Of a stretch of 64,000 nt of DNA, positions 19,614 to 59,020 are shown piece by piece (position 1 is the first letter of the stretch; each line of letters opens with the position of its first letter). The stretch is taken from the NCBI GenBank assembly GCA_963755045.1, contig CAVWIL010000010.1:30059-94058 (forward strand), given 5' to 3'. The notes beneath the pieces are model-generated. The model had not been told where the DNA came from. It saw only the letters and a program-made list of their open reading frames with translations, and ran no database searches. Both the position numbers and the translations under genes were made by a program. The stretch is from Nitrospirota bacterium. GTDB lineage: Bacteria; Nitrospirota; UBA9217.

Positions 19614-19684
19614 AAGCACCAAATACTAAACATCAAATTACAACTGTTTGGTTATTGTAATTTGCGATTTATCATTTGAAATTT
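19614..19684. repeat. Heptamer-repeat palindromic junction element
   Basis: AAGCACC AAATACT AAACATC AAATTAC ... TTGTAAT TTGCGAT TTATCAT TTGAAAT, between the fumarase alpha and beta genes. Confidence 0.6.
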
Positions 19685-19706
19685 TCAGATCACTCTTCCT
19701 GCAAAA

Positions 19707-20546
19707 CTACAATATGATCGTCTTATGCCGGGCCGCATGGCAATTGATATTCACCGCAACCGGCAGGCTGGCGATGTGGCAGGGGAAACTTTCGATATGA
19801 ACTGCCATGGCAGTTACCTTGCCACCGAACCCTTCGGGACCGATGCCCGTCCTGTTCACGGCCTTGAGCAGCGTTTCTTCCAGGCTTGCAAGTTCGAGTT
19901 TTGGATTCGGACTGCCGACAGGGCGGAGGAGCGATTTTTTTGCAAGCAGCGCAGCCTTCTCGAAACTTCCTCCGATGCCCACCCCGATCACCACCGGCGG
20001 ACAGGGGTTTGCCCCGGCTTTTTGCGCGCATTCGAGAACAAAGTTCCTGATGCCCTCCACCCCCTCGGTGGGCCGCATCATCCGGATCACGCTCATGTTC
20101 TCGCTCCCCGCTCCTTTCGGTAAGAACGAGATCTTGAGCTTGTCGCCGGGCACCAGCTCGGTATAGATGATCGCAGGCGTGTTGTCGCCGGTGTTCTTGC
20201 GTGTGATCGGATCGACTACGGACTTCCGGAGATAACCTTCTTTATACCCCTTGCGCACACCCTCATTGATAGCATCGACAATGAACCCGTTCTTGATCCT
20301 GAGGTCCTGTCCGATCTCGACAAAGAAAACGGCAATGCCCGTGTCCTGGCAGATCGGGATATGCTCTTCCCTCGCGATGCGGGCGTTCTCCTTAAGGAGT
20401 TCAATGATCTCTTTAGCGCCGGGTGCGGTTTCGGTCTCGATCGCACGGTCAAAAGCGGTGATCACATCCTCGCTTAAGTTATACGCCGCGTCGAGGCAGA
20501 TCTGCGCGACGTTGTCCCTGATCTCGTCTACATGAATTTCTCGCAT
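19707..20546 (-). CDS. Fe-S hydro-lyase (fumarate hydratase) alpha subunit
   Basis: [38 protein letters not shown] and NCHAARH. Confidence 0.95.
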
Positions 20547-21451
20547 CCCTGCCTCACCGCGTCCACGGACCTCATGAACGCCGCCTTTTCATCGGAATTC
20601 AGCTTGATCTCCACGAGCTGTTCTATGCCCTTTTCGCCGAGCTTCACCAGCACACCGGCAAACGTCCCCTTGACACCATACTCACCTTCGAGGTACGCGG
20701 AACAGGGCAGGATCTTCTTCTTGTCCAGCAGCACGGCCTCGACCATCTCGAGCGCGGCTGCGGCTGGTGCATAGTAGGCGCTTCCGGTCTTGAGCAGGGA
20801 TACGATCTCGGCCCCGCCGTTCCGCGTGCGGTCGACGAGCTTGTCGATCGTCTCTTTGCTCATCAGTTCCGTGATCGGGATGCCCGCAACTGATGAATAA
20901 CGCGGCAGCGGCACCATGGTGTCGCCGTGCCCGCCCAGCACGAAGGCATGGGTGTTCTCAACGGACACGCCGAGCTCCATTGCAATGAATGTGCGGAACC
21001 GCGCCGAATCAAGCACCCCGCCCATGCCGATCACCCGTTCCCGGGGAAAGCCGGAGGCCTTCATGGCAACATAGGCCATCACATCCATGGGGTTCGTGAC
21101 AACGATCATGAAGGCCCCGGGCGACCGCTTGCCCGTTTCCGTGGCCACTTTTTTAACGATATCTCCGTTCGCCGCAAGAAGATCGTCACGGCTCATCCCC
21201 GGCTTGCGTGCCAGCCCGGCGGTGATCACGATAATGTCCGACCCCGCGGTCTCGTCATAGCTGTTCGTGCCAGTCACCCGGGAATCGTATCCCATCACCG
21301 GTCCCGCTTCCAGGAGATCGAGCCCCTTGCCCTGCGGCACGCCCTCGACCACATCCACCATCACCACATCCGCAAGCCGGGTCTCCGCGATCCGCTGCAC
21401 CAGGGTCGCGCCCACATGGCCCGCACCGACAACCGTCACTTTCTTCCGCAA
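20528..21451 (-). CDS. mdh: Malate dehydrogenase (LDH-like)
   Basis: TTG start after [41 protein letters not shown] and [10 protein letters not shown]. Confidence 0.96.
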
Positions 21452-21552
21452 TTCACACCTCCTAATTCGCATAGCGCATAGAGCACGAGCATAGGTTAAA
21501 CAGATGTCATTGACGCGTATGCTGCTCACTGCCTCTATGTGCTCTAGCGCAT

Positions 21553-22830
21553 TCACAGCTTCGATATCTTCACCTTGCTGATCTTCCTGCCTTCCAGCTC
21601 AAGGACCTCCAGTTTGAGGTCCCGGTATCTGAGTTGCTCGCCCACCTTCGGCATCCTGCCGAAAAGCCCGAACACGAACCCGCCGAGCGTGTTGAAATCC
21701 GTGGACTGGAGGTTCGTGTCGAGCATCTCATTCACTTCATCAAGCGCCGATTGGCCCGAGACCACGAAATTTTTCTCGTCCACGATCTGAACATCCTTGT
21801 CCCCGGCCTCAAGCTCGTCGTGGATGCTGCCGACGATCTCCTCGATCAGGTCTTCGAGCGTCACGAGGCCCGCGGTGCCGCCGTATTCGTCGATGACAAT
21901 GGCGATCTGGAACCGGTCCCGCTGCATCTCGGACAGGAGCTCGCTCACCCGTTTGTTCTCGGGGATGAAGTAGGCCTGCCTGACGAACCGCTGGATGCCG
22001 TCCTCGCGCTTCACTTCGCCCGACGCCATGCCCACGAGGATGTCCTTGATGTACAGGATGCCGATCACCGTATCGACCGTGTCCTCGATCACGGGATACC
22101 GGGAATAGCCGAACTCGGACACCAGGGTCAGGACCTCCTGCAGGGTCACACTCGACGGCACGCTCACGATCTCGGTCCGCGGCCGCATGGCCTCTGATGC
22201 CAGCGTATCACCGAACTCAAAAACCTTATGGAGCAGTTCTTTCTCCTCTTCCTTGAGCGAACCGCTGTCCTCACCGAGATTGATAAGGGCCTTGATGTCC
22301 TCTTCCGTGACCACCGCGCTGCAGGACATGCCCTGCGGTCCCGACCCGGCGATAAGGTCCGCAGTGGCCGCAAGCAACCGGGACAGCGGCGACAGAAGCT
22401 TCATTACCAGCTGCAACGGCGCGGAGACGATGAGCGCAAAGCGGTCCGGATTTCTGCAGGCGATCCCCTTTGGGACAAGCTTGGCAACGGAAACGACGGC
22501 AAGAGTTACAAGGAGCACGGTGACCGCCACTGCCAGCGGCTTCTGCGCGATCAGGTTCGCGGCAATGACCATGCCAAGAACTGCAGTGAGAACGATGAAA
22601 AAATTCTCGGCAAGCAAAAGCGTGGAGTGAAGACGATCACGTTCCTGCATCAGCAGGACGACCGTCCCTGCCCGGTTATCTCCCGATTCTGACAACTCCC
22701 GGATGTGCGCCTTGTTGGAGAACACAATAGCGGTTTCCGCAGCCGCAAAAAAAGCCGCGATCAGAACGCTTGCGCCTGCGCCGACAAGCAACGGCCAGGA
22801 GTCGGATATGAATGCGATAAAGACGTCCAT
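21553..22830 (-). CDS. HlyC/CorC-family (CNNM-CBS-CorC) transporter
   Basis: [11 protein letters not shown] domain, MRPRTEI, YSRYPV and [23 protein letters not shown]. Confidence 0.93.
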
Positions 22831-22912
22831 AGTTCAAGCGTAAGGGTACAGGGGCCAGGGCACACGCGTCAGGATAGAAGTACAGACAAATCAGCTTCGT
22901 TCCTGGCAACTG

Positions 22913-25516: not shown

Positions 25517-27216
<1,700 letters not shown>

Positions 27217-27231: not shown

Positions 27232-27320
27232 CAGGAGACAGGAGCCAGAATCCAGAAGCCAGGAAAATAGTTTGATCCGCTCTCCTTCTGGCTACTGGCT
27301 CCTGGCTCCTGACTTCTTAT
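27232..27320. repeat. Heptamer-repeat palindromic junction element
   Basis: CAGGAGA CAGGAGC CAGAATC CAGAAGC CAGGAAA ... TTCTGGC TACTGGC TCCTGGC TCCTGAC. The ispG stop lies inside one arm. Confidence 0.8.
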
Positions 27321-28384
27321 TAACTATTTTTTCCACCTCCTCTACAAGCACGTCAGCAAGCTCTGCCTCCGATAACTTCGCGACGATCTCGCCGTGTTTG
27401 AAGAGCAGCCCGACACCCTTGCCGCCGGCAATACCCACGTCTGCCTCGCGCGCTTCGCCGGGTCCGTTCACGACGCAGCCCATGACCGCGACCGTGATCG
27501 GTTCCTTGATATGCGCCAGTCTCTTTTCCACTTCCTGTGCAAGACCGATGATATCGATCTCGGTCCTGCCGCAGGTGGGACAGGAAACGATATTCACGCC
27601 TCGTTGGCGGATCTTGAGCGACTTCAATATCCCGTAGGCAACGCGCACTTCCTCAACCGGGTCCGCGGTGAGAGAAACGCGCATGGTATCGCCAATGCCT
27701 TCAGCCAGCAGGATGCCGAGCCCCACGCTTGATTTGATCGTACCGGAAAATAGCGTGCCTGCCTCCGAGATGCCGATGTGCAGCGGATAATCCGACTTCT
27801 CGGAAAACAGCCGGTAGGATGCGATCGTCGTCATCACATCAGAGGCCTTGAGAGAGATCTTGATATTGGTGAAGTTCAAGTCTTCGAGGATACGGATATG
27901 ACCAAAGGCGCTCTCAACGATCGCCTCGGGGGTGGGATGCTGGTACTTTTCGAGCAGATGCTTTTCAAGCGAGCCCGCATTCACGCCGATGCGGATCGGG
28001 ATGCCCCTGTCCTCGCATGCGCGGACGACTTCGGCGACCTTGTCCTTCCCGCCGATGTTGCCGGGATTGATCCGGAGACCGTCCACGCCTTGCTTTACCG
28101 CGCAAGCGCCAGACGGTAATCAAAGTGGATGTCGGCGATGAGCGGAATCCTCGTGCCTTTTCTGATCTCACCGAGCGACTTTCGCGGCGTCTTCATCCGG
28201 CACCGCGAGCCGCACGATCTCGCACCCGGCCTGTTCCAGATCGCGGATCTGATCAAGCGTCTTGGCTGCGTCGCGAGTGTCCGTGTTGCACATGGACTGG
28301 ACTGCGACGGGCGCGCCGCCGCCGATCTTCACGGAGCCGAGGGAAATCTGTTTTGTTTTTTTTCGTGTGATAAGAATGATCCAT
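27292..28384 (-). CDS. ispG: (E)-4-hydroxy-3-methylbut-2-enyl-diphosphate synthase (frameshifted)
   Basis: VQSMCNTDT, RINPGNIG, IRIGVNAGSL, YPLHIG.SEAG, CPTCGR and MGCVVNGPGEA. Confidence 0.96.
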
Positions 28385-28411
28385 GTTCATATCTGACCAA
28401 TGCCACAACCA

Positions 28412-28500
28412 AACTCCCTCTCCTTCGCAGACCGGTAAATGGGTGCGCAGAGCGGTGGAATCCTTTGCTTCCTCTCCTCCTGCAGGGGAGAGGATTCGTT
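28412..28500. repeat. Degenerate CCCTCTCC/GGAGAGG-type palindromic element
   Basis: CTCCCTCTCC...CCTCTCCTCCTGCAGGGGAGAGG in the rseP-ispG spacer. Confidence 0.4.
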
Positions 28501-28526
28501 GAGGTTGAGGAGGTGAATGTGATTTG

Positions 28527-29811
28527 TTACTTGCTGAAGAACATCCTCATGATATCGTTGTACGAAACCACGACGATCAGGGTGATCAACAACCCGGCCC
28601 CGATGCTCTGGGAAACCTCCATCACCTTCCTGCTGAGCGGCTTTTTGCGGACCGCCTCGATCATGAGGAACAGGATCATGCCGCCGTCGAGCACCGGGAT
28701 CGGCAGAAGGTTCAGGACGCCGAGCGAGATGCTGATCATGGCAAGGAGCGACAGGAACGCCGAAAATCCGGCGGCAGCGGCCTGGCCGGACATCTGCGCG
28801 ATCATCACCGGGCCGCCGAGCGTCTTGATCGAGAGGTTGAAGGTAATAAGCTTCTTGAGCGTGATGAACGTCAGGTCGACGGACTCGATGGTCTTGTCAA
28901 AGCCCAGCCGCAGGGACTCGAAAAATCCATACTTCTTGAACACCAGCCGCATGACCGGCTCGACACCGATGACCTGCCTGCCGCCATCCTCTTTCGGGGT
29001 AACGATCTTCTCGATGCGCTTGCCGTTCCGTTCGAGCGTAAGCGTAAGCTTGTTTCCCTTGCTGTCGCTAACGAGCGTGGAGAACTGGTTCCAGTGATAG
29101 ATCGGTCTTGCCGTCCACGGCAATGATCTTGTCGTTCACCTTGAGCCCGGCCTTCTCGGCAGGGAACCCCGGTTTCAGTTTGCCGATCTCCGCAGGAATA
29201 TCGGGGACCAGGCCGGAGGTCCCGATCTTGAGCTCTGTGTGCCAGTTCAGGCCGGAGCGTCAGTGTCTTTTTTTCGCCCTTCCGGTCGACCATAACCTTC
29301 ACATCCGTATCCGGGTTCACGGCGATAAGGGTCAACGCCTTGGTCCAGTCGCTGATGCTTCTGCCGTTGATCTCCTCGATCACGTCGCCGACATGAAACC
29401 CGCCTGCTCGGCAGGTGAACCTTTCTCGACATAGCCGACCCTGGCAGGGCCTTCGCTGTACGTTCCGACCATGAAGACAAACGGCATAATGAGAAACGCC
29501 AGCACGATGTTCGTGAGCGGCCCCGTTACCGCGATCTTCGCGCGTTGCCACACGGTCTTGGACTGGAATTCGTCCGGAGCGCCCGTGGGCTCCTCGTCAG
29601 GGTTCTCTCCCGCCATCTTCACATACCCGCCGAGCGGCAGCGCGGAGAGGACATACTCCGTATCACCCTTCTTGAAGCCGAAGAGTTTCGGCCCCATGCC
29701 AAGCGAGAACTTCTCGACCCGCACACCTGCCCGCTTTGCCATGATAAAGTGACCGAACTCGTGCACGAACACGAGAATGCCGATCACGATTAAAAAATAC
29801 ACGAATGTCAT
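28527..29811 (-). CDS. rseP: RIP metalloprotease RseP (frameshifted)
   Basis: HEFGH, LPLGGYV, AGP-like TGPLTN, PDZ domains and LNLLPIPVLDGG. Confidence 0.95.
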
Positions 29812-29929
29812 TGTTCCTCCTAAAAAATACGATGAACCGATAAACAACAAAACATTGAAAATTCTTCAGGAGAAATGGGATATGGCGTGGAAACGGAGCA
29901 TGACATGATTGGATTGTCCCCTTTCTCCA

Positions 29930-31148
29930 TTATTCCCTCTCCCGATCTCCGTAAAATCTTTTCTTATTGCCTTGCCCTTGACCTTGCCTCGACCCTGCGC
30001 CTATGACCTTTTCCGCTTCCTGCCGCGCCCAGAGGTCTGCCTTGAGCGCATCCTCAACGGTATTGATATTCGACGGCCTATGGGCATCCATCGTCGGTCC
30101 TGATCACCCGAGCGATGTCAGCGTAGCCGATCTTCTCTTCGAGAAAATATTTGACCGCCACCTCGTTCGCGGCCGAGAGCACCGCCGGCATACTGCCCCC
30201 GGTCTTCAGAGCATCAAAGGCATAGGCAAGACAGGGGAACCGGTCCAGGTCCGGCTCCTCGAAGGTGAGCGTGCCCACCTTAGCGAGGTCGAGCGCCGGG
30301 GATACATCCGACAAGCCGCTCGGGATACGAGAGCGCATAGGCGATCGGGCCCTTCATGTCGGGCATGCCGAGCTGCGCCACGACCGCGCCGTCATGATAT
30401 TCCACCATGGAATGGACGATGCTTTGGGGATGGACAAGCACCTTGATCTTCCCGGGCGCGATGTCAAAGAGCCACCGCGCCTCGATCACCTCGAGCCCCT
30501 TATTCATGAGCGTGGCGGAATCGATCGTGATCTTCCTGCCCATGCTCCAGTTCGGGTGTTTGAGCGCCTGCGCCAGCGTCACCTTTGCAAGATCTTTTTT
30601 TGCAAAAGTCCGAAACGGACCGCCGGATGCCGTCAAGATCAGTTTCCTGATATCTTTGTTCGCGCCCGCGTGCAGGCACTGGAAAATGGCGCTGTGCTCG
30701 CTGTCCACCGGCAGGATGCTGGACACCCCGTGCCCGGCACTCGGCCATGACCAGCTCGCCCGCGGTCACGAGCACTTCCTTGTTCGCAAGCGCTATGTCC
30801 TTGCCCGCACGGATCGCCGCCATGGTCGGCACCAGCCCTGCGGTCCCCACAATGGCCGAAACGGTGATATCGGCTTCTTCAGCAGCCGCAACCTGGATCA
30901 TGCCCTCGACGCCGGAGAAGATGCGTACGCTGAGGTCAGTGCACCGCCGTCTTCAGTTCCGCGGCGGAAGGCTCGCTCACGACGGAAACCATCGATGGCC
31001 TGAACTGCCGGACCTGTTTCTCGAGCAGCTCGACGTTATTGCCCGCCGCAAGCGCAACGACCTTGAAGCGGTCAGGAAATTTTTCGACCACCGAAAGCGT
31101 GGACTGCCCGATCGAACCGGTGGAACCCAGTATGGATATATTCTTCAT
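29930..31148 (-). CDS. dxr: 1-deoxy-D-xylulose-5-phosphate reductoisomerase (frameshifted)
   Basis: [53 protein letters not shown] and AANEVAV. Confidence 0.96.
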
Positions 31149-31149
31149 A

Positions 31150-31237
31150 AGAAGTCAGGAGTCAGAAGTCAGGAGTCAGAAGAACGACGACGTCTCAGGC
31201 CATTATTCTGAATTCAGGCTCCTGTCTCCTAACTCCT
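31150..31237. repeat. Heptamer-repeat palindromic junction element
   Basis: AGAAGTC AGGAGTC AGAAGTC AGGAGTC ... TTCTGAA TTCAGGC TCCTGTC TCCTAAC, between cdsA and dxr. Confidence 0.8.
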
Positions 31238-31241
31238 CCCT

Positions 31242-32047
31242 TTATCTCATCCTGAGATAATAATACAACACAGGCGCGGCGAACAGCATGCTGTCCATGC
31301 GGTCGAGAATGCCGCCGTGCCCGGGAATGATGTCACCCGAATCCTTGACCCCTGCCGCGCGCTTGAACAGCGACTCCGTAAGGTCGCCGATCGTGCCGAC
31401 AACCGCCAGCACAAGCGCGATCGCGATCGCTTCGCCCGCACCGATAGGCGGCATGAACCAGACCCTGCACAGAAGCGCCATGCCTGCGGACGCCACCAGC
31501 GCGCCGATGAAGCCCTTCAATGCTTTTCTTCGGGCTCACCTTTTCATACAGCCGGTGTTTGCCGAAGGGGATGCCGATGGAATAGGCCCCGATATCCGAT
31601 GCCCAGATGATGAAATAGAGGAACACCAGCCATTGTTTGCCGTTCATCGCCCGTGCGGATCGCCACCTGGAAGGCGAACAGCATGGCCACGTAGAACATC
31701 CCCAGGAACGTGGCCGCAACGTCCTCGATCGCGCCGTCAACGGGCCGGGAGGAAAAAAGCCGTGCGATCATGATCAGAAGCATGCCGGCGGCGACCGGAA
31801 AGGAACTCCCCCCATCACCGGAAGCAGGGGATGATAGGAATCCAGTACAATCAGCGCGCCGAGCACGATCCCGAGCACAAGGTGGGGATGCGATCCCCGG
31901 GCCTGCGCCATGCGGTAAAATTCATACTGTCCCACGGCGCCGGCTGCCACCACCAGCGCCGTGAAATAGATCGGGGGAAGGTTCCAGGCGACAGATGTAA
32001 AAGATGGGCAGGAACAGCAGTCCTGTGATCACTCTTTTATACAACAT
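31242..32047 (-). CDS. cdsA: Phosphatidate cytidylyltransferase (frameshifted)
   Basis: IWASDIGAY, VSPKKSIEG, GDLTESLFKRAAGVKDSG.IIPGHGGILDRMDS. Confidence 0.95.
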
Positions 32048-32929: not shown

Positions 32930-33034
32930 TCGCTCTTGAATCTCCATTTTACACTCATGCGACCTGCAGGCATCATGGATTCAACATTTTTCGTGACTGC
33001 CCAGGTACATCAGAAAACAATCAGGAGAAATGGA

Positions 33035-33130
33035 GAATTAAAGGCGAAAGGGAGATATATAACGTATAATAACAGAACTTCCTTGTTCCCTCATTTCGTC
33101 CAGTTTTCCGCCTTTCACCTGAAAGGGTTT
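33035..33130. repeat. AGGCGAA/CGCCTT-type palindromic junction element (copy 1)
   Basis: GAATTAAAGGCGAAAGGGAGA ... CCGCCTTTCACCTGAAAGG. A similar copy is at 35025-35112. Confidence 0.5.
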
Positions 33131-35024: not shown

Positions 35025-35112
35025 AATTAAGAGGCGAAAGGGGGATGAAAGACATACATAAAAGAAGGTCCTTTTCTCTCTTTCTGCGATTTGCCCCCTT
35101 TCTCCTGAAAGG
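35025..35112. repeat. AGGCGAA/CCCCTT-type palindromic junction element (copy 2)
   Basis: GAATTAAGAGGCGAAAGGGGGA ... CCCCCTTTCTCCTGAAAGG, in the same orientation as 33035-33130. Confidence 0.5.
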
Positions 35113-37328: not shown

Positions 37329-37519
37329 CTCGTTGAAACTCGCTGTTTTCCTGATATTTTCGATGAGAATATAGATTGGAATATTAGCCTTACGGCCGTG
37401 AAAAGTCAATCGAAAACAGGAAGTTGAGCGTTGTTGCGGTTGAATTTAAACGAGTTATGGCCTTCATGAACAGGAAGGCGTCGCATCCGACTTATCTGAG
37501 GTCGCTCGAAAGGAAATTG

Positions 37520-37670
37520 TTCTCGCAGAGGAACAGGGTATTCGCAGAGAAAAGCATTAAAATGTTCCGGGTTAAAAGCCAGGCTGAGCGGTTTTGATTT
37601 ACCTCTGCGTCCGGAGCCTGCCCTCGAATGGCTTTATCGGGGGCGCGCTCTGCGAGAGACGCATTTAATC
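37520..37670. repeat. CGCAGAG/CTCTGCG palindromic element
   Basis: TCTCGCAGAG...CTCTGCGAGA inverted pair. The core CGCAGAGAAA.GC.TTAA...GGGTTAAA recurs at 57351-57385. Confidence 0.55.
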
Positions 37671-38407: not shown

Positions 38408-38424
38408 CGTAGGTCCTCGTATAT

Positions 38425-38510
38425 AGGAGCCAGGAGTCAGAATTCAGGAGTTAGAAACAATACATGCGGACAGTCTTCTGGCTCCTGTCTCCTGGATTCT
38501 GAATCCTGAT
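38425..38510. repeat. Heptamer-repeat palindromic junction element
   Basis: AGGAGCC AGGAGTC AGAATTC AGGAGTT ... TTCTGGC TCCTGTC TCCTGGA TTCTGAA TCCTGAT, between the ABC ATPase and permease genes. Confidence 0.8.
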
Positions 38511-38511
38511 G

Positions 38512-39351: not shown

Positions 39352-39537
39352 AAAGCCGTAAACCGTGAAAGGTGAAATATAATGGGATGATTTACTTCTT
39401 ACTTCTCGTGTAGTTCGTGCTTCAATCCCCGGCAACTTGATCTTCCGGTGAAGATTGCCCCGCTCCATGTCGACGGCTTCGACGGTTGTGCTCATGTCAT
39501 TACAAACCGACGTAATACAAATGTTCGGCGATGCTAT

Positions 39538-41825: not shown

Positions 41826-41916
41826 AACACGAATTGCACGAATGCTCCTAATGTCGCAAAGTAAAAACAATCTCCTCTTTTATAAGTGCAATTCGTCCAA
41901 TTCGTGTCATTCGTGC
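41826..41916. repeat. 9-mer CACGAAT/ATTCGTG palindromic junction element
   Basis: ACACGAATTGCACGAAT ... AATTCGTCCAATTCGTGTCATTCGTG. Confidence 0.65.
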
Positions 41917-41979: not shown

Positions 41980-42911
41980 TCACTTCTCACGCCGTTCAAA
42001 TATTCCCATCGTCAGATACCGCTCACCGACATCAGGCAGGATCGTGACGATGCGCGATCCCTTTCCCAGGCGCGCCGCCACCTGAAGCGCCGCCCAGCAC
42101 GCCGCGCCGGACGAGATGCCCGAGAGAATGCCTTCCTCCTGCGCCAACCGCCTCGCCATATCAGCGGCGTCATCCTGGCCGACCTTGATGATCCCGTCGT
42201 ACACCCTGGTATTCAGTATCGCGGGAACGAACCCCGCGCCGATCCCCTGTATGGGATGGGGTCCGGGCTGGCCCCCCGAAAGCACAGGCGAGGCCGCGGG
42301 TTCAACGGCAAAGATCGTGATGTCCTTGTATTTTTTCCTGAGCACCTCTCCCACGCCCGTGATCGTGCCGCCGGTGCCGACACCGGCCACGAACGCATCC
42401 ACTTTTCCCCCGCCCATCTGTTTGATGATCTCTTTTGCCGTTGTGCGGCGGTGGACCTGCGGGTTCGCGGGATTGCCGAACTGGTCGGGCTTGAAGTATT
42501 CCTTGCCGGATGCAACGATCTCATCTGCCTTCGCGATCGCGCCTTTCATGCCTTTTTCAGCGGGAGTGAGCACAAGCTGAGCGCCATAGGCTTCGAGCAG
42601 TCTTCGACGCTCGACCGTCATGGACTCCGGCATGGTCAGGATGACCGTGTAGCCTTTGACCGCGGCGACCATGGCGAGACCGATGCCCGTATTACCGCTC
42701 GTGGGCTCCACGATCTTCATGCCCTTTTTGAGGATCCCTTTTTTTCCGCATCCTCGATCATGGCGAGGGCCGGCCGGTCCTTGACACTCCCTCCGGGGTT
42801 AAATCCTTCGAGCTTTGCCCACACCTCGGCATCGCCGGCACCCGGCAGTTTATTGAGTCTGACCAATGGCGTGTTCCCGATCAGATCCAGCACTGTTTTC
42901 AACTTAGGCAT
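41980..42911 (-). CDS. cysK: Cysteine synthase A (frameshift near 42720)
   Basis: [48 protein letters not shown] and GISSGA. Confidence 0.95.
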
Positions 42912-42966
42912 ATTCGTCCTTCCTCGTGTCTTTGCTCCGCACTCAGAACTCCTAACTCCGAACTTA

Positions 42967-44667
42967 TCACGCAGCTCCCCGCTCGATCATCTCCTCGGCA
43001 TGCTTGATCGTGGCCTCGGTGATCGTCTTTCCTCCGAGCATCCGCGCGAGCTCATCCACGCGTTCCTGTTTGTCGAGCAGCCGCACCTCGGTGCTTGTTC
43101 GCTCCTTCTTTACGGACTTGGTAACTCCGTAGTGGCTCCCGGCCATGCTCGCGATCTGCGGCAGATGGGTGATGCAGAAGACCTGTCGTTTAGAGGCCAC
43201 GCGCTTCAGCTTCTTGCCGACCTCTTCCGCCACCGCGCCGCCGATTCCCGCGTCCACCTCGTCGAACACGAGCGTGGGGATGCTGTCGCCTTCCACCAGG
43301 ATCGTTTTGAGCGCAAGCATGATGCGCGACAACTCGCCGCCCGAGACGATCTTCGCGAGCGCCTTTGGCTCCTCGCCCGCATTCGGCGAGATCAGGAATT
43401 CAACGCGGTCCGCGCCGCGCGGCCCGAGTTTGAGACCGTCAAACGTGTCCCCTCCGGGCTCCTGCGTGATCTTCACCGTAAAGGTTGTTTTCTTCATCCC
43501 GAGGTGGCTGAGCTCTGTCTCGACCTTTTTCTCGAGCTCGCGAGCCGCCGCTTTTCGCTTCTTCGTCAACTGATTGGCCTTGTCGGTCAGGCCGAACTTT
43601 ATTTCCTGTATCCCTGATTTCAGGTTTTCGATCTCCTCGGTGCTCCGTTCCATGCGTTCAAGCGAGGCCGACGCTTTTACGCCGAAGTCTATGATCTCCT
43701 CGATCGTATTCCCGTACTTTTTTTTTAGCTTCTGGATCAGGTCCAGCCGGTCCCCGATCTGCTCCAATCGCTGGGGATCGAACTCGCCGCGATTGAGGTA
43801 CGAGGAGACTTCCCGTGCGGCCTCTTCTATCTGAGCGCGGCCCGATTCGCAGAGCTCAAGCGCACCCGAGAGGCTGCTGTCGATTTGGACCACGTCTTTC
43901 AGCCCGTTGATCGCCTTTTTCAGGTTTGCGAGCACCGCGCCGTCGGAGGAATAGAGCGCCTCATCCACCATGGCTGAAAGGGCCGCGAGCTTTTCAGCAT
44001 GTGCCATGACCTTTTGCACATTCGCAAGTTCTTCATCCTCGCCCGGCTTCAGCTGGGCCGCTTCGATCTCATTCTTCTGGTATCGCAGCAAATCCTCGCG
44101 CTGCGCCCGGTCGCGCTCTCCCTCCTGGAGTTCTGCGAGTTTTTTGCGGATGTCAAGCAGCTTGCGATACTCCGCGGTAACATCATCGCGGAGCGCGTCG
44201 AGATTGCCAAAGGTGTCGAGCATCTCCATCTGGCGTTCGAGGGAGAGCAGTGATTGGTGTTCGTGCTGGCCGTGGATATCGGCAAGATTCGCGCCAACAG
44301 ACGCGAGCGTGGCGAGGTTCGCCAGGCTCCCGTTGATATAGACCTTGTTCTTGCCAGAGGACGAGAGCACCCGGCGCACGATCAGGTCCCCGCCGGGGTC
44401 CATCTCAATGCCCTGCTCTGACAGCACCATCGATACGTCAGCAGCAATGCGGTTGTTGAGCTCAAAAGCCGCCTCCACCACGGCTTCCTGAAAGCCGCTC
44501 CGGATCAGGTCCACGTTCGCCCGTTCGCCGAGCGCCAGGCTGAGCGCGTCGACAACGATGGATTTGCCGGCCCCGGTCTCGCCCGTAAACACGTTCAGCC
44601 CCGGCGCGAACTCCACCCGAAGCTGGTCGATGATGGCAAAATTTTTTATGCTCAGTTCTTTCAACAA
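42967..44667 (-). CDS. recN: DNA repair protein RecN
   Basis: [40 protein letters not shown] and ITHLPQIA. Confidence 0.97.
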
Positions 44668-44676
44668 TGCTTACAC

Positions 44677-44808
44677 CAAATTCCAAATCTCAAATCACAA
44701 ATCCCAAATAATAATCAAACTGAACAAATCTCAATTACCGAAACGTTTAATGTTTGATGCTTGGCGCTTGAAATCTATTTGGGATTTGGTGCTTGATATT
44801 TGGTGCTT
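44677..44808. repeat. Heptamer-repeat palindromic junction element
   Basis: CAAATTC CAAATCT CAAATCA CAAATCC CAAATAA ... ATTTGGG ATTTGGT GCTTGAT ATTTGGT. Confidence 0.8.
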
Positions 44809-45365
44809 TCCCCATTCACTGCATCCGCCTTCTTCATCGCATAGCGTCCTTGGGTGGACGTTCCTTTGCCGCCCGCCTTGCGGTACAACTCTGCTGCCTG
44901 CTCTTTCTTGCCCATCCGTTCGCTCGCCCTACCTGCCCAGTAGTACGCGGTGCCGACCAACATGCCGGACGTTGGATAGCTCTCGGGTATTTTCAAGAAT
45001 TCAGTCACCGCTTCAGCGTCTCTTCCGAGGAGAAGGGCGCAGAACCCTATCCAGTACTGGGTCTGCGCTCGCTCACCAGGCTCCTGGTATATGATCGCCT
45101 GTCGGTATGCATCGAGGGCATGTTGGTAATCGATCAGACGAAAATAACTGTCGGCGATGCGCGTATGGATAAGTCCCGGGGAAATAGCGCCGGACGGAGA
45201 GGATAGCACTGCCTGATATAAACGAATTGCTTCCGGGTAATGGCCTTGTGAGAACATCTGGTCCGCCTGTAAATATTCACGAGGAACGTTCTGACCACAG
45301 GTTATTTGCGGCAGGGCATACAGGCCAAGCATCATAAGGGAAATAATGAATAATTTTCTTTTCAT
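44775..45365 (-). CDS. Exported TPR-repeat protein
   Basis: Signal-like MKRKLFIISLMMLGLYALP and TPR-like helices (YPEAIRLYQ, ALDAYRQA, YYWAGRA). The C-terminus runs into the repeat element. Confidence 0.8.
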   Translation of the reverse strand: MKRKLFIISLMMLGLYALPQITCGQNVPREYLQADQMFSQGHYPEAIRLYQAVLSSPSGAISPGLIHTRIADSYFRLIDYQHALDAYRQAIIYQEPGERAQTQYWIGFCALLLGRDAEAVTEFLKIPESYPTSGMLVGTAYYWAGRASERMGKKEQAAELYRKAGGKGTSTQGRYAMKKADAVNGESTKYQAPNPK

Positions 45366-45496: not shown

Positions 45497-45625
45497 CAAG
45501 CGTTGACCACGGAAAAGACCACTGAATATCACGGACAAGATACGGATAGGATAAAGGGATATATCGATATATGTAGTAGTTGGGTTGTTATCTCCGTGCG
45601 TCTCCCTCGGTGCAAATCCGCGGTA
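45497..45625. repeat. CACGGA/TCCGTG-type palindromic element (degenerate)
   Basis: ACCACGGAAAAGACCACTGAATATCACGGA ... TCTCCGTGCGTCTCCCTCGGTGCAAATCCGCGGT. Confidence 0.45.
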
Positions 45626-45705
45626 ATTTTCACAGAGTGTTCGAATGGTGAAATGGCAAGGTATTATCAAGGCAGACAACAAGTCACGGGGAATTCGCGC
45701 CGCCC

Positions 45706-47055
45706 CTACCGCTCCCTCGGAATCCCCCACTTCTTTCTCTTCTCCCAGAGCGATTTCCGGGTGATCCAGAGCATGTCCGCAAGCTGCTGTTCGTTGAACT
45801 GGCCCTGGTATTTCTGGATGAATGCCTTGGTGTATTCCTCGATGGAAAGCTTTTTATCAAAGACCTGCGTCTCGAACGATGACGCTGCCGCAAGCCCCAC
45901 GGGCAGGTGTTCGGGGGCAATGACGTTGCCGTCGGAGACAAGGATGGCGCGCTCGATCACGTTCTGGAGCTCACGGACGTTCCCCGCCCACTCGTAGTTC
46001 ATCATGAGTTCCAGGGACTCGGGAGCAATCTCCTTTATTGTTCTCCCCATCTCGTGTGAGTACTTTTCGAGATAGTGCTGTACGAGCGCTTTGATGTCTT
46101 CTTTCCGTTCCCGCAGCGGCGGGATCTGGAGCGAAATGACATTGATCCGGTAATAGAGGTCTTCGCGGAACGCGTTCTGCTTTACCGCGGCCTTCAGGTC
46201 CTTGTTCGTGGCCGTGATGAACCGGATGTCCACCTTGCTGCCCTTGGTGCTGCCCACGGGACGGATCACCTGGTCCTCGATGACCCGGAGCAGTTTGGCC
46301 TGGAGCGACATGCTCATGTCGCCGATCTCGTCGAGGAACACGGTGCCGCCCTCGGCTTCCTCGAGGATGCCTTTCTTGGTGGCGACCGCGCCGGTGAATG
46401 CGCCCCGCACGTGACCGAACAGCTCGGTCTCAAGCAGGTTCTCGGGGATCGCGGAGCAGTTGATCGGCACAAAGGGCATGTCGCGGCGGGAGCTGTTGTG
46501 GTGGATCACCCGCGCAAAGAGCTCCTTGCCCGTCCCGGTCTCGCCGAGCAGCAGGACGCTGCTCCTGGTGTCGGTGACCTTCCGGACCTCGTCGAGGATG
46601 GCCTTGAGCGCAGGGCTCTCGCCGATGATGCTGCTGAAATCGTAATCCTTCCCGATCTCGCGCTTGAGCAGCACGTTCTCGGCCTGGAGGCTCTTCTGCC
46701 GGAGGGCGTTCCGGACGACCTGCTTGATCTCCTCGTGGATGACCGGCTTCATGATGTAGTCGTACGCGCCGGCCCGGAGCGCCTTGATGGATGTGTCGAG
46801 CGACGCATAGGCGGTGACGACGATGATGATCTGGTCAGGGACCTGTTCCCGGACACGGGTGAGCATCTCGATCCCGTCCATGCCCGGCAGGATGATGTCC
46901 GTCAGGATGACGTCGTACATGCCGGTCTCGAGCAGGGCAAGGCCCTTTTCCGCCGACTCGGCGCCGTCCACCGTGTACCCTTCCTTGACAAAGATGCGCT
47001 TGATGGACTCCCGCAGCGTCTCTTCGTCCTCTACGATCAGAATGTTCTTGGACAT
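45706..47055 (-). CDS. Sigma-54-dependent response regulator (NtrC/AtoC family)
   Basis: Receiver domain (ILIVEDEE, TDIILP), GETGTGKE, ETELFGH.RGAFTGA, FLDEIG, REDLYYRIN and AGNVRELQN. Confidence 0.95.
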   Translation of the reverse strand: MSKNILIVEDEETLRESIKRIFVKEGYTVDGAESAEKGLALLETGMYDVILTDIILPGMDGIEMLTRVREQVPDQIIIVVTAYASLDTSIKALRAGAYDYIMKPVIHEEIKQVVRNALRQKSLQAENVLLKREIGKDYDFSSIIGESPALKAILDEVRKVTDTRSSVLLLGETGTGKELFARVIHHNSSRRDMPFVPINCSAIPENLLETELFGHVRGAFTGAVATKKGILEEAEGGTVFLDEIGDMSMSLQAKLLRVIEDQVIRPVGSTKGSKVDIRFITATNKDLKAAVKQNAFREDLYYRINVISLQIPPLRERKEDIKALVQHYLEKYSHEMGRTIKEIAPESLELMMNYEWAGNVRELQNVIERAILVSDGNVIAPEHLPVGLAAASSFETQVFDKKLSIEEYTKAFIQKYQGQFNEQQLADMLWITRKSLWEKRKKWGIPRER

Positions 47056-47077
47056 CGAAATCCTCTGTTTATCGTTA

Positions 47078-47355
47078 TCCGCAGATTACGCAGATTTCGC
47101 GGATTGTGAGAATGCAAAACCACGGTATTTAAGAGAAGCCGGTCCAAGGTTAAGCAGCACACCTGCAAAAGAACATGTTGATTTAGGATAATTAATTATT
47201 TGCGCTTCGTCAACTTTACCCAGCTTTGACAACGCCTTCAGTTCGACGATGACGGTCTCATGGCAAATGAAATCTGCCGTAAAACAATCTCATTGTTTTC
47301 TCGATTCAATGGTCCCATCCCAATTCCTCATCTGCGAATCTGCGTAATCTGCGGA
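47078..47355. mobile_element. Minimal element: GxxExxY remnant between 19-bp perfect inverted repeats
   Basis: TCCGCAGATTACGCAGATT (47078-47096) and AATCTGCGTAATCTGCGGA (47337-47355). Confidence 0.65.
47086..47283 (-). pseudogene. GxxExxY-family (PD-(D/E)XK-like) protein remnant, C-terminal half only
   Basis: Manual translation gives FTADFICHETVIVELKALSKLGKVDEAQIINYPKSTCSFAGVLLNLGPASLKY, matching the family pattern ADF...IVELKA...EAQ.INYLK...LLNFG. No N-terminal half or start codon. Missed by the ORF track. Confidence 0.8.
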
Positions 47356-47472
47356 CAAGGATTTACGCCTCCACCCGAATCTTGATGAAAAACCGCGTCC
47401 CCCTGTCCTTTTCGGATCAACCGTTGTAATTTCGTTGCATGCTTGAGCGGATGTGAGCGTTTGCACATCCAA

Positions 47473-47955
47473 CTACCTCCCGAACCTCTTCTTCAACTTC
47501 GCCACCACCACTCCCGGCACCAGGCTCGACACATCGCCGCCGTAGCTCGCGGCCTCCTTCACAATGGTCGAGGTAATAAAGGAATATTCTTCGCTCGGCA
47601 TCAAATACACTGTCTCAATAGTATTGTCAAGCCTGCGGTTCATGAGGGCCATCTGCAGTTCAAATTCAAAATCTGAAACCGCACGCAGCCCCCGGATAAT
47701 ACCGACTGCCTTCTTTTTATTGACATAATCAACGAGCAGGCCGTCAAACCCCTCGATCACGACGTTCTTATGCCTGCCAAACGCTTTTTTGAACAGGGTG
47801 ACTCGCTCTTCAAGAGAAAAAAGCGGCTCCTTCCTGGGGTTCTCCGCTACCGCCACGATAACCTTGTCGAATATTCTCAGGCTTCGTTCAACGAGGTCGA
47901 TGTGCCCGTTGGTGACAGGATCAAAGGTCCCGGGATAAACCGCAATATGTTTCAT
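47473..47955 (-). CDS. coaD: Phosphopantetheine adenylyltransferase
   Basis: YPGTFDPVTNGH, IRGLRAVSDFEFE and ITSTIVKE. Confidence 0.97.
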   Translation of the reverse strand: MKHIAVYPGTFDPVTNGHIDLVERSLRIFDKVIVAVAENPRKEPLFSLEERVTLFKKAFGRHKNVVIEGFDGLLVDYVNKKKAVGIIRGLRAVSDFEFELQMALMNRRLDNTIETVYLMPSEEYSFITSTIVKEAASYGGDVSSLVPGVVVAKLKKRFGR

Positions 47956-47971
47956 GGCATCTCCTTTTAAA

Positions 47972-48096
47972 AGGAGTCAGAAGACAGGAGTCAGAATCCA
48001 GGAGAGCTGAACTGATGATGAAAAACCTGACTACCGACTCCTGGTTCCCCGCTGCTGGCTACTGACTCCCGATTCCTGATTCCTGACCCCTGAACT
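47972..48096. repeat. Heptamer-repeat palindromic junction element
   Basis: AGGAGTC AGAAGAC AGGAGTC AGAATCC ... ACTGACT CCCGATT CCTGATT CCTGACC. The rsmD stop lies inside one arm. Confidence 0.8.
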
Positions 48097-48625
48097 TATA
48101 AAACGCCAGCACCGTATCGCCATACTTCGCTTCGCGATAAAGCGTCAAAACACCCGCATCGGCCGGTGACGATTGTTTCTTAAAGTGTTCGGCGATCACG
48201 ATCGAATCAGGCTTCAGTATCCCCGCGCCTGCTATCAGTTCGAGCAGGGGCTGCAGCTCATCCGCGTAGGGCGGATCGAGGAACACGATATCATACGACC
48301 CTGACGGTTTTTTGAGGAATGACTCGACCTTCGACAGCACGGCCCGTGATTGGTCTTCGAAACCGGTCTGCTCGATGTTTTGCTTGACCACAGTTAACGA
48401 TGCGCGCGACGAGTCCACAAAGACCACGTGCCCCGCCCCGCGACTGAGTGCCTCGATACCGATGCCGCCTGCGCCGGCAAAAAGATCGAGGAAAAAAGCG
48501 TCAGCCACCTTCTCCCCGAGGATGTTGAACAAGGCCTGTTTCACCTTGTCGGACGTCGGTCTCACACGAGACCCTGCCGGCGCCTTCAACCGTCGCCCTC
48601 TTCCTGTTCCCCCGGTCACTCTCAT
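48059..48625 (-). CDS. rsmD: 16S rRNA m2G966 methyltransferase
   Basis: RPTSDKVKQALFN, LDLFAGAGGIGIEALSRGA and FLDPPY. Confidence 0.95.
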   Translation of the reverse strand: MRVTGGTGRGRRLKAPAGSRVRPTSDKVKQALFNILGEKVADAFFLDLFAGAGGIGIEALSRGAGHVVFVDSSRASLTVVKQNIEQTGFEDQSRAVLSKVESFLKKPSGSYDIVFLDPPYADELQPLLELIAGAGILKPDSIVIAEHFKKQSSPADAGVLTLYREAKYGDTVLAFYKFRGQESGIGSQ

Positions 48626-51719: not shown

Positions 51720-51832
51720 CAAGGGGAATCAGTTCAAAATTCGGGAACTGGAGTCCGTAGTTCGGAGTTGGGGTCGGGAGTAAAGAATTACTAAATTTCA
51801 ACATTCAGACTGAATCTTAACTGGAGAAAAAA

Positions 51833-56270: not shown

Positions 56271-56272
56271 GA

Positions 56273-57475: not shown

Positions 57476-57490
57476 CCTGCCTCATAGTTA

Positions 57491-58006: not shown

Positions 58007-58011
58007 TATTT

Positions 58012-58105
58012 ACTCTCCCTCCCCTTCAAGGGGAGGGCCGGGGTGGGGATGGGTTAAAACCGGCGCTTGGACCCATCCCCCACCTAACCTCCCCCTTGAA
58101 GGGCG
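58012..58105. repeat. CCCTTCAAGGG-type long palindromic element
   Basis: CCCTTCAAGGGAGG..GGTGGGGATGGGT ... ACCCATCCCCCACC..CCTCCCCCTTGAAGGG, between dsrF and dsrT. Confidence 0.75.
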
Positions 58106-58117
58106 AGAAATTATTGT

Positions 58118-58534
58118 TTAGAAGAACAGCAGGTGCTTCACCGCTTCCATTTCCTTCTGAATATCCGCGAAAGAAACGAATTTGGTGGTCAGATCCGCGC
58201 CGCCGATATCTTCTGCATCGGTGATGATCTGGTCCTCTTTCAGGCCGAGACGCTCCATGTCCTCCTTGCAGATCCAGATCGGCACATCGACCTGCAGGGA
58301 ACTTTTGATGTGACTTTCGGTGCTGGTCACGCCGTAGATCTTCATGGCCTGTTGGCCCTTCACCATGTTCAGGACGCCATCTCCCACGAACACCACGGTC
58401 GGAACGACCGAATCGCCGTCATCCATATAGATCTCAGCGGTTTGGCTGGCGATCGCATGGGTGAGTGCAAGACGGGGGTTTTCACTCTTGTAGGGAGGTC
58501 TTTGAACAACAAACAATAATTTTACGGCACCCAT
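58118..58534 (-). CDS. dsrF: DsrF/TusC-like protein
   Basis: FVVQRPPY, VFVGDGVLNMVKGQ and ICKEDMERLGL. Confidence 0.75.
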   Translation of the reverse strand: MGAVKLLFVVQRPPYKSENPRLALTHAIASQTAEIYMDDGDSVVPTVVFVGDGVLNMVKGQQAMKIYGVTSTESHIKSSLQVDVPIWICKEDMERLGLKEDQIITDAEDIGGADLTTKFVSFADIQKEMEAVKHLLFF

Positions 58535-58894
58535 TTACTCACCTCCAATGTGAAGCAGCTTGTCGGTTTTGACCGTCTTGGCCAAATACCAATCCATGCT
58601 GGCCCGTTTCATGCCTTCGGGCACGTCTTCCTTGTGATATCCCCGTGCCTCGGCACAGGCTTCGCAGACAGTGACCTCCATACCCTTGCCCATCAGCTCT
58701 TTCATAAGCTTCTCATTGTGCGAGTAGTCCTTAAACGCTTTTTGCCCCTTTTTGGCCATCATGACGGCGTTGCCGGAAAGCCACATGTTCACTTTGTGTC
58801 CTTTGGCGATCGCAGCCTCGGCGAGCTTGAAGGAAAAATCAAGCGACATCGAGCCGACCAGAGAGGGGAACACTCCCAAGGTAAATTCTCCCAT
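58535..58894 (-). CDS. dsrE: DsrE/TusD-like sulfurtransferase
   Basis: KLAEAAIAKGHKV and VCEACAEARG (Cys at the DsrE persulfide position, as CxxC), ending TDKLLHIG. Confidence 0.8.
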   Translation of the reverse strand: MGEFTLGVFPSLVGSMSLDFSFKLAEAAIAKGHKVNMWLSGNAVMMAKKGQKAFKDYSHNEKLMKELMGKGMEVTVCEACAEARGYHKEDVPEGMKRASMDWYLAKTVKTDKLLHIGGE

Positions 58895-58918
58895 TGTATC
58901 CTCCTTATTTATTTTCTG

Positions 58919-59020
58919 ATGGACGAATGGACGATCACGTTCGCTTGCGCTCACTCGGACGAATGCGTACTCGATCATCGTCTCTCGTCCATCGTCTTTC
59001 GCATTCGTTCCCTCGTTCTT
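58919..59020. repeat. GGACGA/TCGTCC heptamer palindromic element
   Basis: ATGGACG AATGGACG AT ... ATCGTCT CTCGTCC ATCGTCT, between dsrH and dsrE. Confidence 0.65.

Follow-up and report, generated by a model that had tools for sequence, protein, structure and literature searches.

Palindromes of short tandem repeats at operon junctions of an uncultured Nitrospirota genome and their relation to small gene-bearing cassettes

The stretch of DNA considered here, hereafter the window, comprises 64,000 nucleotides of an uncultured Nitrospirota bacterium (contig CAVWIL010000010.1 of assembly GCA_963755045.1, positions 30,059 to 94,058 of the forward strand). Many of its gene junctions hold short palindromic elements in which a run of tandem units is followed by a spacer and then by the reverse-complement run, and the origin of these elements is the subject of this report. 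A sequence-only reading of the same DNA had listed about 20 of them, and the shared architecture of arms with tandem units could be confirmed at or near most of the coordinates that it named. Its count was somewhat generous, however: a junction-by-junction scan of the window yields 11 clear palindromes with arms of tandem 7-12-nt units and about five solo or half arrays. Among the sites that it had considered weaker, the one near 45500 proved to be a palindrome (45506-45636), those near 51740 and 29870 are just solo or half arrays (a TTCGGAG-like heptamer array at 51745-51781 in a convergent gap, and an array at 29970-30010), and the one near 8935 is not convincing; the same must be said of an element proposed at 39362-39425. 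Tandem Repeats Finder reports arrays of period 7 or 14 at 27239, 27288, 31150, 38473, 42935, 44676, 47972 and 48062, and of period 9 at 47080 and 47330. An Rfam scan of the window returned no family at the gathering score.

The heptamer palindromes include an AT-rich element at 19620-19678 (CAAATAC/TAAACAT/CAAATTA, then inverted), whose 24-nt arms are 79% complementary with a period of 7 and which separates the genes for fumarate hydratase beta (19012-19593) and alpha (19707-20546). Palindromes of the TCAGGAG type recur along the window. One at 27232-27317 (30-nt arms, 83%, period 7, predicted fold of -44.3 kcal/mol) lies between an open reading frame (ORF) at 26725-27216 and ispG/gcpE (27292-28086), and its right arm provides the final codons and the stop codon of ispG. 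Another, of mixed TCAGGAG/TCAGAAG units, occupies 31150-31237 (35-nt arms, period-7 score 0.79; a 14-mer in 2.4 copies, 100%) between the start of dxr (30936-31148) and a cdsA-like gene (31242-31520). Others of this type are found at 38425-38510, between genes for an ABC-2 permease (37676-38407) and an ABC ATPase (38512-39351), and at 47972-48084 (41-nt arms, 73%), with rsmD (48059-48565) on its stop-codon side and coaD (47473-47955) on its ribosome-binding-site side. A CAAATCC-type palindrome at 44674-44805 (28-29-nt arms, 76-82%; predicted fold of -32 kcal/mol) is flanked by recN (42967-44664) and the gene for a tetratricopeptide repeat protein (44775-45365), and a solo CTCCGAA array of 4.3 copies at 42935-42964 sits in the 55-nt gap downstream of recN. 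An element of the GGACGAR heptamer family, which carries the subterminal family motif AGTGAGCGCAAGCGAACG, lies at 58919-59020 between dsrE-like (58535-58894) and dsrH-like (59026-59325) genes. A GGACGAR array of 4.4 copies also occurs in frame inside a gene for a GH57 amylase/4-alpha-glucanotransferase (36091-36121 within 35154-37409).

Other palindromes have longer units. At 41827-41907, 17-nt arms (94%) of the 9-mer CACGAATTG lie between genes for a class-V aminotransferase (40660-41784) and a pyridoxal phosphate-dependent enzyme (41980-42720); the unit belongs to a class with the core CRCNRAD. Downstream of the ABC-2 permease gene, an empty palindrome at 37521-37660 (TCTCGCAGAGG..CGCAGAGA / CCTCTGCG..CTCTGCGAGAGA), which had gone unlisted in the sequence-only reading, has arms of the kind that bracket PDDEXK_3 nuclease genes, as does a degenerate palindrome of 12-mers at 45506-45636 (ACCACGGAAAAG/ACCACTGAATAT/CACGGA ... 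TCCGTG..TCCGCGGT), whose 12-mer arm also encloses an intact PDDEXK_3 gene at locus L133 of a relative. One copy in the window still carries part of such a gene, as had been noticed from the sequence alone. Its inverted 26-nt arms of the 9-mer CGCAGATTA (92%) lie 240 nt apart at 47071-47096 and 47337-47362, upstream of a sigma-54 response-regulator gene (45706-47055), and the ORF at 47086-47289 on the minus strand matches positions 58-108 of PF13366, the profile of the PDDEXK_3 or GxxExxY nucleases (E=4.7e-10). Only the C-terminal half is left, with the hD...ExK residues kept and in the same orientation as the operon, and this fragment is the only cargo in the window. Also previously overlooked was an empty hairpin at 58022-58103, between an RsbRD_N gene and dsrE, with non-tandem 33-nt arms (CCCTTCAAGGGGAGG..GGGGATGGGT) around a 16-nt loop.

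The remainder of this metagenome-assembled genome (MAG; 2.96 Mb in 25 contigs, 54% G+C, 86% complete, 3.6% contamination) contains gene-bearing counterparts of each of these arm classes. PDDEXK_3 is represented by three full-length genes, and four-helix-bundle proteins (PF05635, 23S_rRNA_IVP) by about seven loci, of which several have decayed. Inverted tandem arrays with units of the same types as in the empty palindromes bracket four of four PDDEXK_3 loci and about five of the seven PF05635 loci. The nuclease loci at C9:26875-27320, C7:46328-46805 and C14:18177-18617, whose intact genes occupy C9:26914-27282, C7:46388-46738 and C14:18209-18628, have the arm units CACGGAT, CGCAGAG and CGCGGAG, respectively, whereas the four-helix-bundle genes at C14:97184-97603, C1:90345-90784 and C17:58885-59223 are enclosed by CAGGAGT/CAGAAGC, AGTTCGG and GGACGAR units. 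Two DUF559 genes (C25:3803-4108 and C9:23869-24177) both lie within a 33-36-nt non-tandem inverted repeat, the same CCCTTCAAGGGGAGG..GGGGATGGGT that forms the hairpin in the window, giving cassettes of C25:3753-4190 and C9:23791-24230 with their arms included; further empty copies are found at C6:109734, C7:429277 and C19:15028. Empty palindromes and gene-bearing cassettes are therefore parts of one system, and all three kinds of cargo proposed by the sequence-only reading (GxxExxY/PDDEXK_3, four-helix-bundle and DUF559) were encountered inside inverted arms.

The full-length nucleases retain both GxxExxY and the D...ExK catalytic motif. In six of six co-directional contexts the cargo gene has the orientation of the host operon, which fits promoterless genes that depend on read-through. 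For every gene-bearing copy there are more than 10 empty ones, and a tblastn search of the genome with the cargo proteins (E<=1) added just marginal remnants, so most loops hold no recognizable trace of a gene. The nearest solved structures to the four-helix-bundle protein are 2GSC (Xanthomonas XCC0516) and 2RLD, with five chains deposited in each, and a sequence search with PDDEXK_3 against solved structures gave no match. Upstream of the intact nuclease gene on C9, a 63-nt unit made of an arm, a ribosome-binding site and the first PDDEXK_3 codons is present four times in tandem (C9:27289-27500).

The association between genes and arms holds in related bacteria. In a comparison set of 31 genomes, made up of the window genome and 30 relatives, 17 of the 19 genomes in the window's family have PDDEXK_3 genes, with one to seven copies each, as against only one of the 12 that represent other families of the phylum. 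All 22 analyzable PDDEXK_3 genes in the relatives are surrounded by inverted CRCNRAD arms with a period of 8-12, the units including CGCAGAG, CACAGAG, CACGGAG, CACGAAG, CGCAAAG, CGCAGAT and CACTGAT, among others. Inverted tandem arms are likewise found at 21 of 23 four-helix-bundle loci, where they are CRCNRAD-like in one case only and otherwise mostly heptamers of great variety (GGGGATC, CAGGGTW, AAGGGTC, GGATTAG, GTAGACA, TCAGGAG and GGACGAG among them). Arm class thus tracks gene class: the arms are CRCNRAD 8-12-mers around PDDEXK_3 genes, mostly heptamers around four-helix-bundle genes, and non-tandem stretches of 33 nt around DUF559 genes. On the basis of this pairing, the 9-mers in the window (CACGAATTG at 41826 and CGCAGATTA at 47071) and the arms at 37521 and 45506 can be assigned to the nuclease type, and the heptamers to the four-helix-bundle type.

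The CRCNRAD core persists around nucleases that share only about 30-45% identity. Unconstrained non-coding DNA would not behave in this manner, and this is indirect evidence that the units are read by something specific, most simply by the cargo protein itself. Triple CRCNRAD arrays, counted across the 31 genomes by a pattern search with a built-in reversed-pattern control, number 44-532 in 17 of the 18 genomes that have a PDDEXK_3 gene, and 3 in the remaining one (G019), which has a single such gene. The two members of the window's family without the gene, G010 and G011, have 6 and 19 arrays, other genomes without it have 0-5, and a count of 48 was obtained for G023, which has no detectable gene. 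In G028 and G030, which have six to seven four-helix-bundle genes and no PDDEXK_3 gene, the count is 0-1.

Orthologous junctions differ in occupancy between relatives, in support of the sequence-only reading: junctions that are empty, that have arms only, that have a truncated gene and that have an intact gene were all observed. The most informative is the response-regulator junction (47056-47472 in the window). In G013, which belongs to another genus of the same family, an intact PDDEXK_3 gene is present in the order arm, gene, arm in direct copy, loop of about 85 nt and inverted arm. The window has an arm, the C-terminal half of PDDEXK_3 and an inverted arm. Four genomes of the same genus (G003, G004, G005 and G006) have gene-less arms (TCCGCAGATTACGC... 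/ ...AATCTGCGGA) around a loop of about 70-85 nt, the arms being shorter in G003 and G004, and paralogues of the operon in the window's own genome have still more eroded versions of the cassette. A single junction therefore exhibits three states, with the gene intact, truncated or absent from between the arms, and the cargo gene decays in place. The arm-only forms may be footprints, as the sequence-only reading proposed, or landing sites for the genes; the layout in G013 fits both.

This junction has a further peculiarity. The 5' part of the response-regulator gene (46500-47055) is present three times in the MAG at 95-99% identity, the other copies being at C21:15340-15904 and C3:8192-8752, and each copy has a different upstream spacer; at the window copy, all that is left of the upstream histidine-kinase gene is about 60 nt ahead of coaD. 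The three copies are either paralogues or co-binned strains.

Two other junctions also vary between relatives. Between coaD and rsmD (47956-48058), the window has 103 nt from stop codon to ribosome-binding site, whereas in G007, of the same genus, the stop, ribosome-binding site and start are accommodated within 12 nt and the element is absent; the gap in other relatives ranges from about 30 to 264 nt. At the junction of the ABC ATPase and permease genes (38408-38511), the genes abut or overlap in G011 and G014 and the gap in G005 is free of repeats. The same junction holds about 20 CTGTCTC units in G015 and about 8 in G013, 14-mers in G012, and CTCCGAA-type or AATCCG-type units together with another shared hairpin in G003, G006 and G016. 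Two larger inserts at this junction were considered as possible cargo and rejected. The one in G004 (L014, G004:C1:10530-12430) is made up of long homopolymer runs of A, T and G over 1.7 kb and most likely arose as an artefact of assembly, the junction being rich in repeats, and the one in G002, an antisense gene for an Ig-like lipoprotein at a contig end, is probably a misassembly.

Throughout the genome, strict period-7 arrays number 224, compared to 10 in a dinucleotide shuffle, and for 95 of these a reverse-complement partner lies no more than 250 nt away, compared to 2 in a reversed-sequence control. A looser detector finds 96 heptamer palindromes, and CRCNRAD palindromes with a period of 8-12 nt number 87, compared to 9 in the shuffle. 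The union of the detectors comprises at least 171 non-overlapping elements, or about one per 17 kb, with more than 50 distinct unit consensus sequences in this single genome. Since gene positions come from a simple dicodon caller that covers 77% of a MAG with frameshifted genes, the counts by context are approximate: 140 elements lie in co-directional gaps, 15 in convergent gaps, 8 in divergent gaps and 8 within genes. Against a background of 70/12/17.5% of intergenic length (co-directional/convergent/divergent), the 163 intergenic elements are enriched in co-directional gaps (140 of 163, p=2e-6) and depleted from divergent ones (p=1e-6). The bias reported by the sequence-only reading is thus genuine, but its statement that the elements lie almost exclusively between co-directional genes was too strong. 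Its description of their placement tight against stop and start codons is borne out by the heptamer elements, which begin a median of 11.5 nt past the upstream stop and end a median of 20 nt ahead of the next start, and so is its view that they are not intrinsic terminators, given that a T-run (at least four T within 10 nt past the 3' arm) follows only 8 of 84 elements. The elements may reach these junctions by active targeting, as that reading proposed, or may simply survive there, and their stems could be processed in the mRNA or tune expression, as it also suggested.

The elements are predicted to fold much better than their shuffled versions (median z of -4.4). Furthermore, the 5' arm is the purine-rich one in 88 elements and the opposite holds in 4, with G exceeding C in 80 and the reverse in 13; as the elements are palindromic, this bias applies to both strands and represents a true handedness. 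Inverted arrays spaced 250-2500 nt apart were also considered as cargo cassettes. These lie mostly around ordinary genes such as rpe, engB and a pseudopilin gene, and must therefore be separate elements at two neighboring junctions. A stretch between inverted CTCCGAA arrays (C7:191217-191869) holds a hypF-like (YrdC-domain) fragment of 217 codons with in-frame read-through that includes the arms, and may be a gene interrupted by two elements.

Signs of spread are clearest in the GGACGAR family. About 18 empty copies, including 58919-59020, share the subterminal motif (T)AGTGAGCGAAGCGAACG(G) beside the 3' arm, and the motif occupies the matching place in the four-helix-bundle cassette at C17:58873-59223. 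This is the pattern of a family of MITEs (miniature inverted-repeat transposable elements) and its gene-bearing relative. The likeness to MITEs extends to other features: the terminal inverted repeats of the empty elements are common to gene-bearing ones, and the few gene-bearing relatives are far exceeded in number by short palindromic copies that are non-coding. A shared internal sequence, as in a MITE family, is present in these approximately 18 copies and not in most other elements, and the cargo (PDDEXK_3, four-helix-bundle, DUF559) falls outside the known transposase families.

It is probable, in our judgment, that the palindromes are the gene-less members of a group of mini-cassettes that are bounded by hairpins and resemble the intervening sequences (IVSs) of 23S rRNA. 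A full cassette measures about 0.4-0.55 kb and has inverted arms around a single small gene, presumably promoterless, that encodes a GxxExxY-type PD-(D/E)XK nuclease, a DUF559 endonuclease or a four-helix-bundle protein of the '23S rRNA intervening-sequence' kind. Cassettes lie in presumably transcribed non-coding spacers, mostly right after a stop codon and right ahead of a ribosome-binding site in operons and in some cases in the 16S-23S spacer, and are predicted to be transcribed by read-through from host promoters. The cargo protein might recognize its own arm units and in this way drive spread, either by copy-out of the whole foldback or by the gene's homing into sites with arms only. In the RNA, the purine-rich 5' arm is predicted to pair with the pyrimidine-rich 3' arm to form a long imperfect stem, and this stem could make the insert tolerable to the host, possibly through RNase III cleavage as with 23S intervening sequences. 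The gene may be lost by deletion between direct arm copies, which would yield exactly the arm-only form.

Several observations weigh against this interpretation. Neither cargo protein is known to act on such arms. The correlation between array and PDDEXK_3 gene counts (Spearman rho of 0.88 over the 31 genomes and 0.75 within the family) ignores kinship, and G023, which belongs to another family and is 98% complete, has its 48 CRCNRAD arrays, many of them in inverted pairs, with no PDDEXK_3 gene detected. When the pairing of an element's own arms was compared with pairing to arms of other family members, the two arms paired no better together, so there is no element-specific compensatory signal for a selected stem; the stem arises from the repeat nature of the arms and not from element-specific compensation. 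Loops are unique within the genome in 68 of 78 cases, and thus most empty copies could be independent local remnants instead of copies of each other; no recent transposition was caught among the loops compared within the genome. Only one clean pair of empty and occupied sites is available, that of the element at 47972-48084, where the flanking TTTTAAAA and TTATAAAA do not establish a target-site duplication. Also, the units at one junction can differ totally between close relatives, which would require very fast turnover or repeated invasion.

Alternatively, the palindromes could have come first and served as landing sites, with a nuclease gene and one arm copied in after cleavage and the gene later degenerating and being lost, such that each site cycles between empty and occupied. 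The arm-gene-arm-loop-inverted arm order in G013 is what would be seen if a gene and an arm had been added on one side of an intact empty palindrome, and homing of this kind would also suit the strict pairing of gene class with arm class, the abundant arrays in 17 of 18 genomes with the gene, the intact nuclease motifs and the excess of empty over gene-bearing copies. However, the arrival of arm-only palindromes at new junctions is left unexplained, the truncated gene in the window represents decay and not arrival, the four-helix-bundle cargo has no nuclease fold, and the cleavage site is not known; homing as the primary origin is considered unlikely. Hairpins that serve the host and have grown in place, like repetitive extragenic palindromic (REP) elements, are a rather unlikely source as well. 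Slippage would expand the repeats, selection would keep long intercistronic stems that stabilize the upstream mRNA or uncouple the translation of neighboring cistrons, and small genes would merely lodge there. Co-directional placement, depletion from divergent (promoter) gaps and the lack of a T-tail would be expected of such hairpins; for the REP elements of E. coli, co-directional placement, avoidance of divergent promoter gaps and the lack of a T-tail have been described likewise. Unit copy number does vary (compare G015 and G013 at the ABC junction), tandem arms can pair in any register, and heptamers are the commonest long simple-sequence repeats of bacteria and have been attributed to polymerase slippage (PMC4692102, PMC4679880). 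Slippage alone nevertheless fails to predict a conserved CRCNRAD core around such divergent nucleases, the near-absence of arrays from family members without the gene, the fixed purine-first polarity or the subterminal motif shared by GGACGAR elements, and close relatives cope with abutting genes at the same junctions.

A regulatory role as paired binding sites for nucleoid or global regulators such as IHF/HU, as proposed for Geobacter metallireducens, appears very improbable. The tandem units do resemble iterons, and the paired sites of that organism include the unit MTYCTGA and one pair located between proB and proA (PMC2700814). Yet there are more than 50 unit consensus sequences in one genome, divergent promoter regions hold only 8 of 163 elements when 17.5% would be expected, elements are found inside operons and in the rRNA spacer, and they turn over between close relatives. 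Finally, care must be taken with a MAG of limited completeness that has contamination, frameshifted genes and near-duplicate contigs, particularly as one relative has homopolymer junk at a junction. An origin of the elements in assembly or binning is nonetheless exceedingly improbable, since about 18 genomes, each assembled independently, have the same architecture and units at orthologous sites and the arrays also flank intact ORFs.

The closest parallel to cassettes of the proposed kind is found among IVSs. ORF-bearing inserts in 23S rRNA, such as the helix-45 IVS of Coxiella burnetii with its S23p ORF and those of Leptospira and others, are regarded as selfish and as tolerated because RNase III cuts out the stem (PMC4990558). 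The elements described here share with them a small insert within inverted repeats able to form a stem and a presumably transcribed non-coding context. The PF05635 four-helix-bundle ORF is present in about five loci elsewhere in the genome and in 21 of 23 loci in relatives, but in none of the window elements. RNase III is encoded in the genome. Unlike IVSs, however, the elements are located at operon junctions of protein genes and in the 16S-23S spacer and not in helix 25 or 45 of the 23S rRNA, most copies have no ORF, the arms are made of tandem short units, and two further cargo classes (PDDEXK_3 and DUF559) each have their own arm class. The 23S gene (C4:7289-10290), at 3002 nt for a model of 2925 positions, has no large insert, and the genome-wide detection of arrays and inverted repeats placed none within it, whereas three heptamer palindromes of the AAATTCG and TTCGGAG types surround the tRNA-Ile and tRNA-Ala genes in the 16S-23S spacer (C4:6731-6793, 6947-7017 and 7106-7170).

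Similar arrays have been described in other bacteria with different explanations. In Geobacter metallireducens, pairs of sites on opposite strands, each composed of three to five tandem 7-, 8- or 9-mers at a variable distance, were designated 'global regulator binding sites' of classes 1-3 and taken as IHF/HU sites, with 8-24 pairs per class (Aklujkar et al. 2009, PMC2700814). These are also intergenic paired arrays, some of them within operons (proB-proA), and the unit of their class 3, MTYCTGA, is complementary to the TCAGGAG/TCAGAAT unit of this genome, but no link to cargo was drawn, the pairs are fewer than the at least 171 elements counted here, and the phylum is different. The GGGAATC heptamers of Xanthomonas form 70-75 inverted pairs per genome, are intergenic and mostly transcribed, have positions that are conserved between related species with lengths that vary, and have been discussed as G-quadruplex formers (Rehm et al. 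2015, PMC4692102). Intergenic tandem heptamers are common to these repeats, to the short tandemly repeated repetitive (STRR) sequences of cyanobacteria and to the elements described here. The Xanthomonas study (PMC4692102) names neither the four-helix-bundle protein XCC0516 nor S23, leaving a link to cargo undrawn, and the appearance of XCC0516 (2GSC) as the nearest structure to the four-helix-bundle protein here is a lead and not a test. In the Beggiatoaceae, TAACTGA arrays are abundant in intergenic regions just 5' of start codons, including those of ribosomal-protein operons, and their distribution has suggested horizontal spread and a role as a Shine-Dalgarno replacement (MacGregor 2015, PMC4679880); they differ in having a single unit and almost only direct repeats (169 sets vs 1 inverted). 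In the open-access literature, with subscription journals outside its coverage, no account was found that links such arrays to four-helix-bundle, GxxExxY or DUF559 genes.

Placement between co-directional or convergent genes is a feature that the elements share with both MITEs and REP/BIME (bacterial interspersed mosaic element) sequences. They differ from the latter in that their arms are tandem arrays of many different units instead of one conserved hairpin per genome. A system of REPs and their associated tyrosine transposases (RAYTs) was considered as the source and rejected, as the one IS200 tnpA and the one RAYT-like pseudogene in the genome are not flanked by these unit types. The RAYT-like Y1 transposase pseudogene (C2:198481-198810) has an in-frame TGA at the usual W codon and is flanked by inverted 9-mers (GGTCCGACC) and short tandem repeats, and the IS200-type tnpA (C1:132275-132583) has terminal hairpins.

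Intergenic heptamer arrays, among them the cyanobacterial repeats, the 'regulator sites' of Geobacter and the GGGAATC pairs of Xanthomonas, have been reported repeatedly and have no accepted origin or function, and no role is known for the small genes of the four-helix-bundle and GxxExxY types, which are very common. This genome ties the two together in a testable manner. The window and its relatives add a genome in which three cargo classes have three arm classes, all of them represented in the window by empty copies; a full series of decay (or invasion) at one orthologous junction; and a numerical association of arrays with nuclease genes among the relatives. A bolder claim, which we advance tentatively and think somewhat more apt to fail than to hold, is that three unrelated proteins (the GxxExxY nuclease, the Avd-like four-helix-bundle protein and DUF559), each with its own class of self-complementary arms, constitute one unrecognized kind of minimal mobile element without a known transposase, a 'foldback cassette'. 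The protein would read the tandem units as iterons, and the element would reside in transcribed spacers because the RNA stem that it forms is either cut or tolerated. Gene-less copies, at hundreds per genome, would account for the long-unexplained heptamer and octamer repeats of cyanobacteria, Xanthomonas and Geobacter, and the 23S rRNA intervening sequence would simply be the best-known landing place.

If the association with cassettes is correct, a large share of 'junk' operon palindromes would gain an origin, the nuclease and four-helix-bundle proteins would gain candidate nucleic-acid ligands, and the position of intervening sequences in rRNA would become a special case of a general habit. 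Genome annotation is affected as well, because the elements overlap gene ends, provide stop codons (the end of ispG at 27292 is one case) and can lie in frame inside genes. The in-frame array at 36091-36121 falls in the linker between the middle and C-terminal domains of the GH57 protein, where it is translated as ...EGTRDEGRGTRKK....

Some additional features of the window deserve mention. The cdsA-dxr-rseP-ispG cluster (27292-31783) seems broken, with dxr represented by an N-terminal ORF of 70 amino acids and later pieces, rseP split into two ORFs and ispG without positions 1-91 of its profile; frameshift errors in a long-read MAG are the probable cause, unless the genes are pseudogenes. Also, the segments at 33028-33125 and 35032-35110 have in common the motif AGGCGAAAGGG(G/A)GAT ... 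CCTTTC(T/A)CCTGAAAGG and precede a gene for an FG-GAP protein and the GH57 gene, respectively, where they represent a further small dispersed hairpin or regulatory motif.

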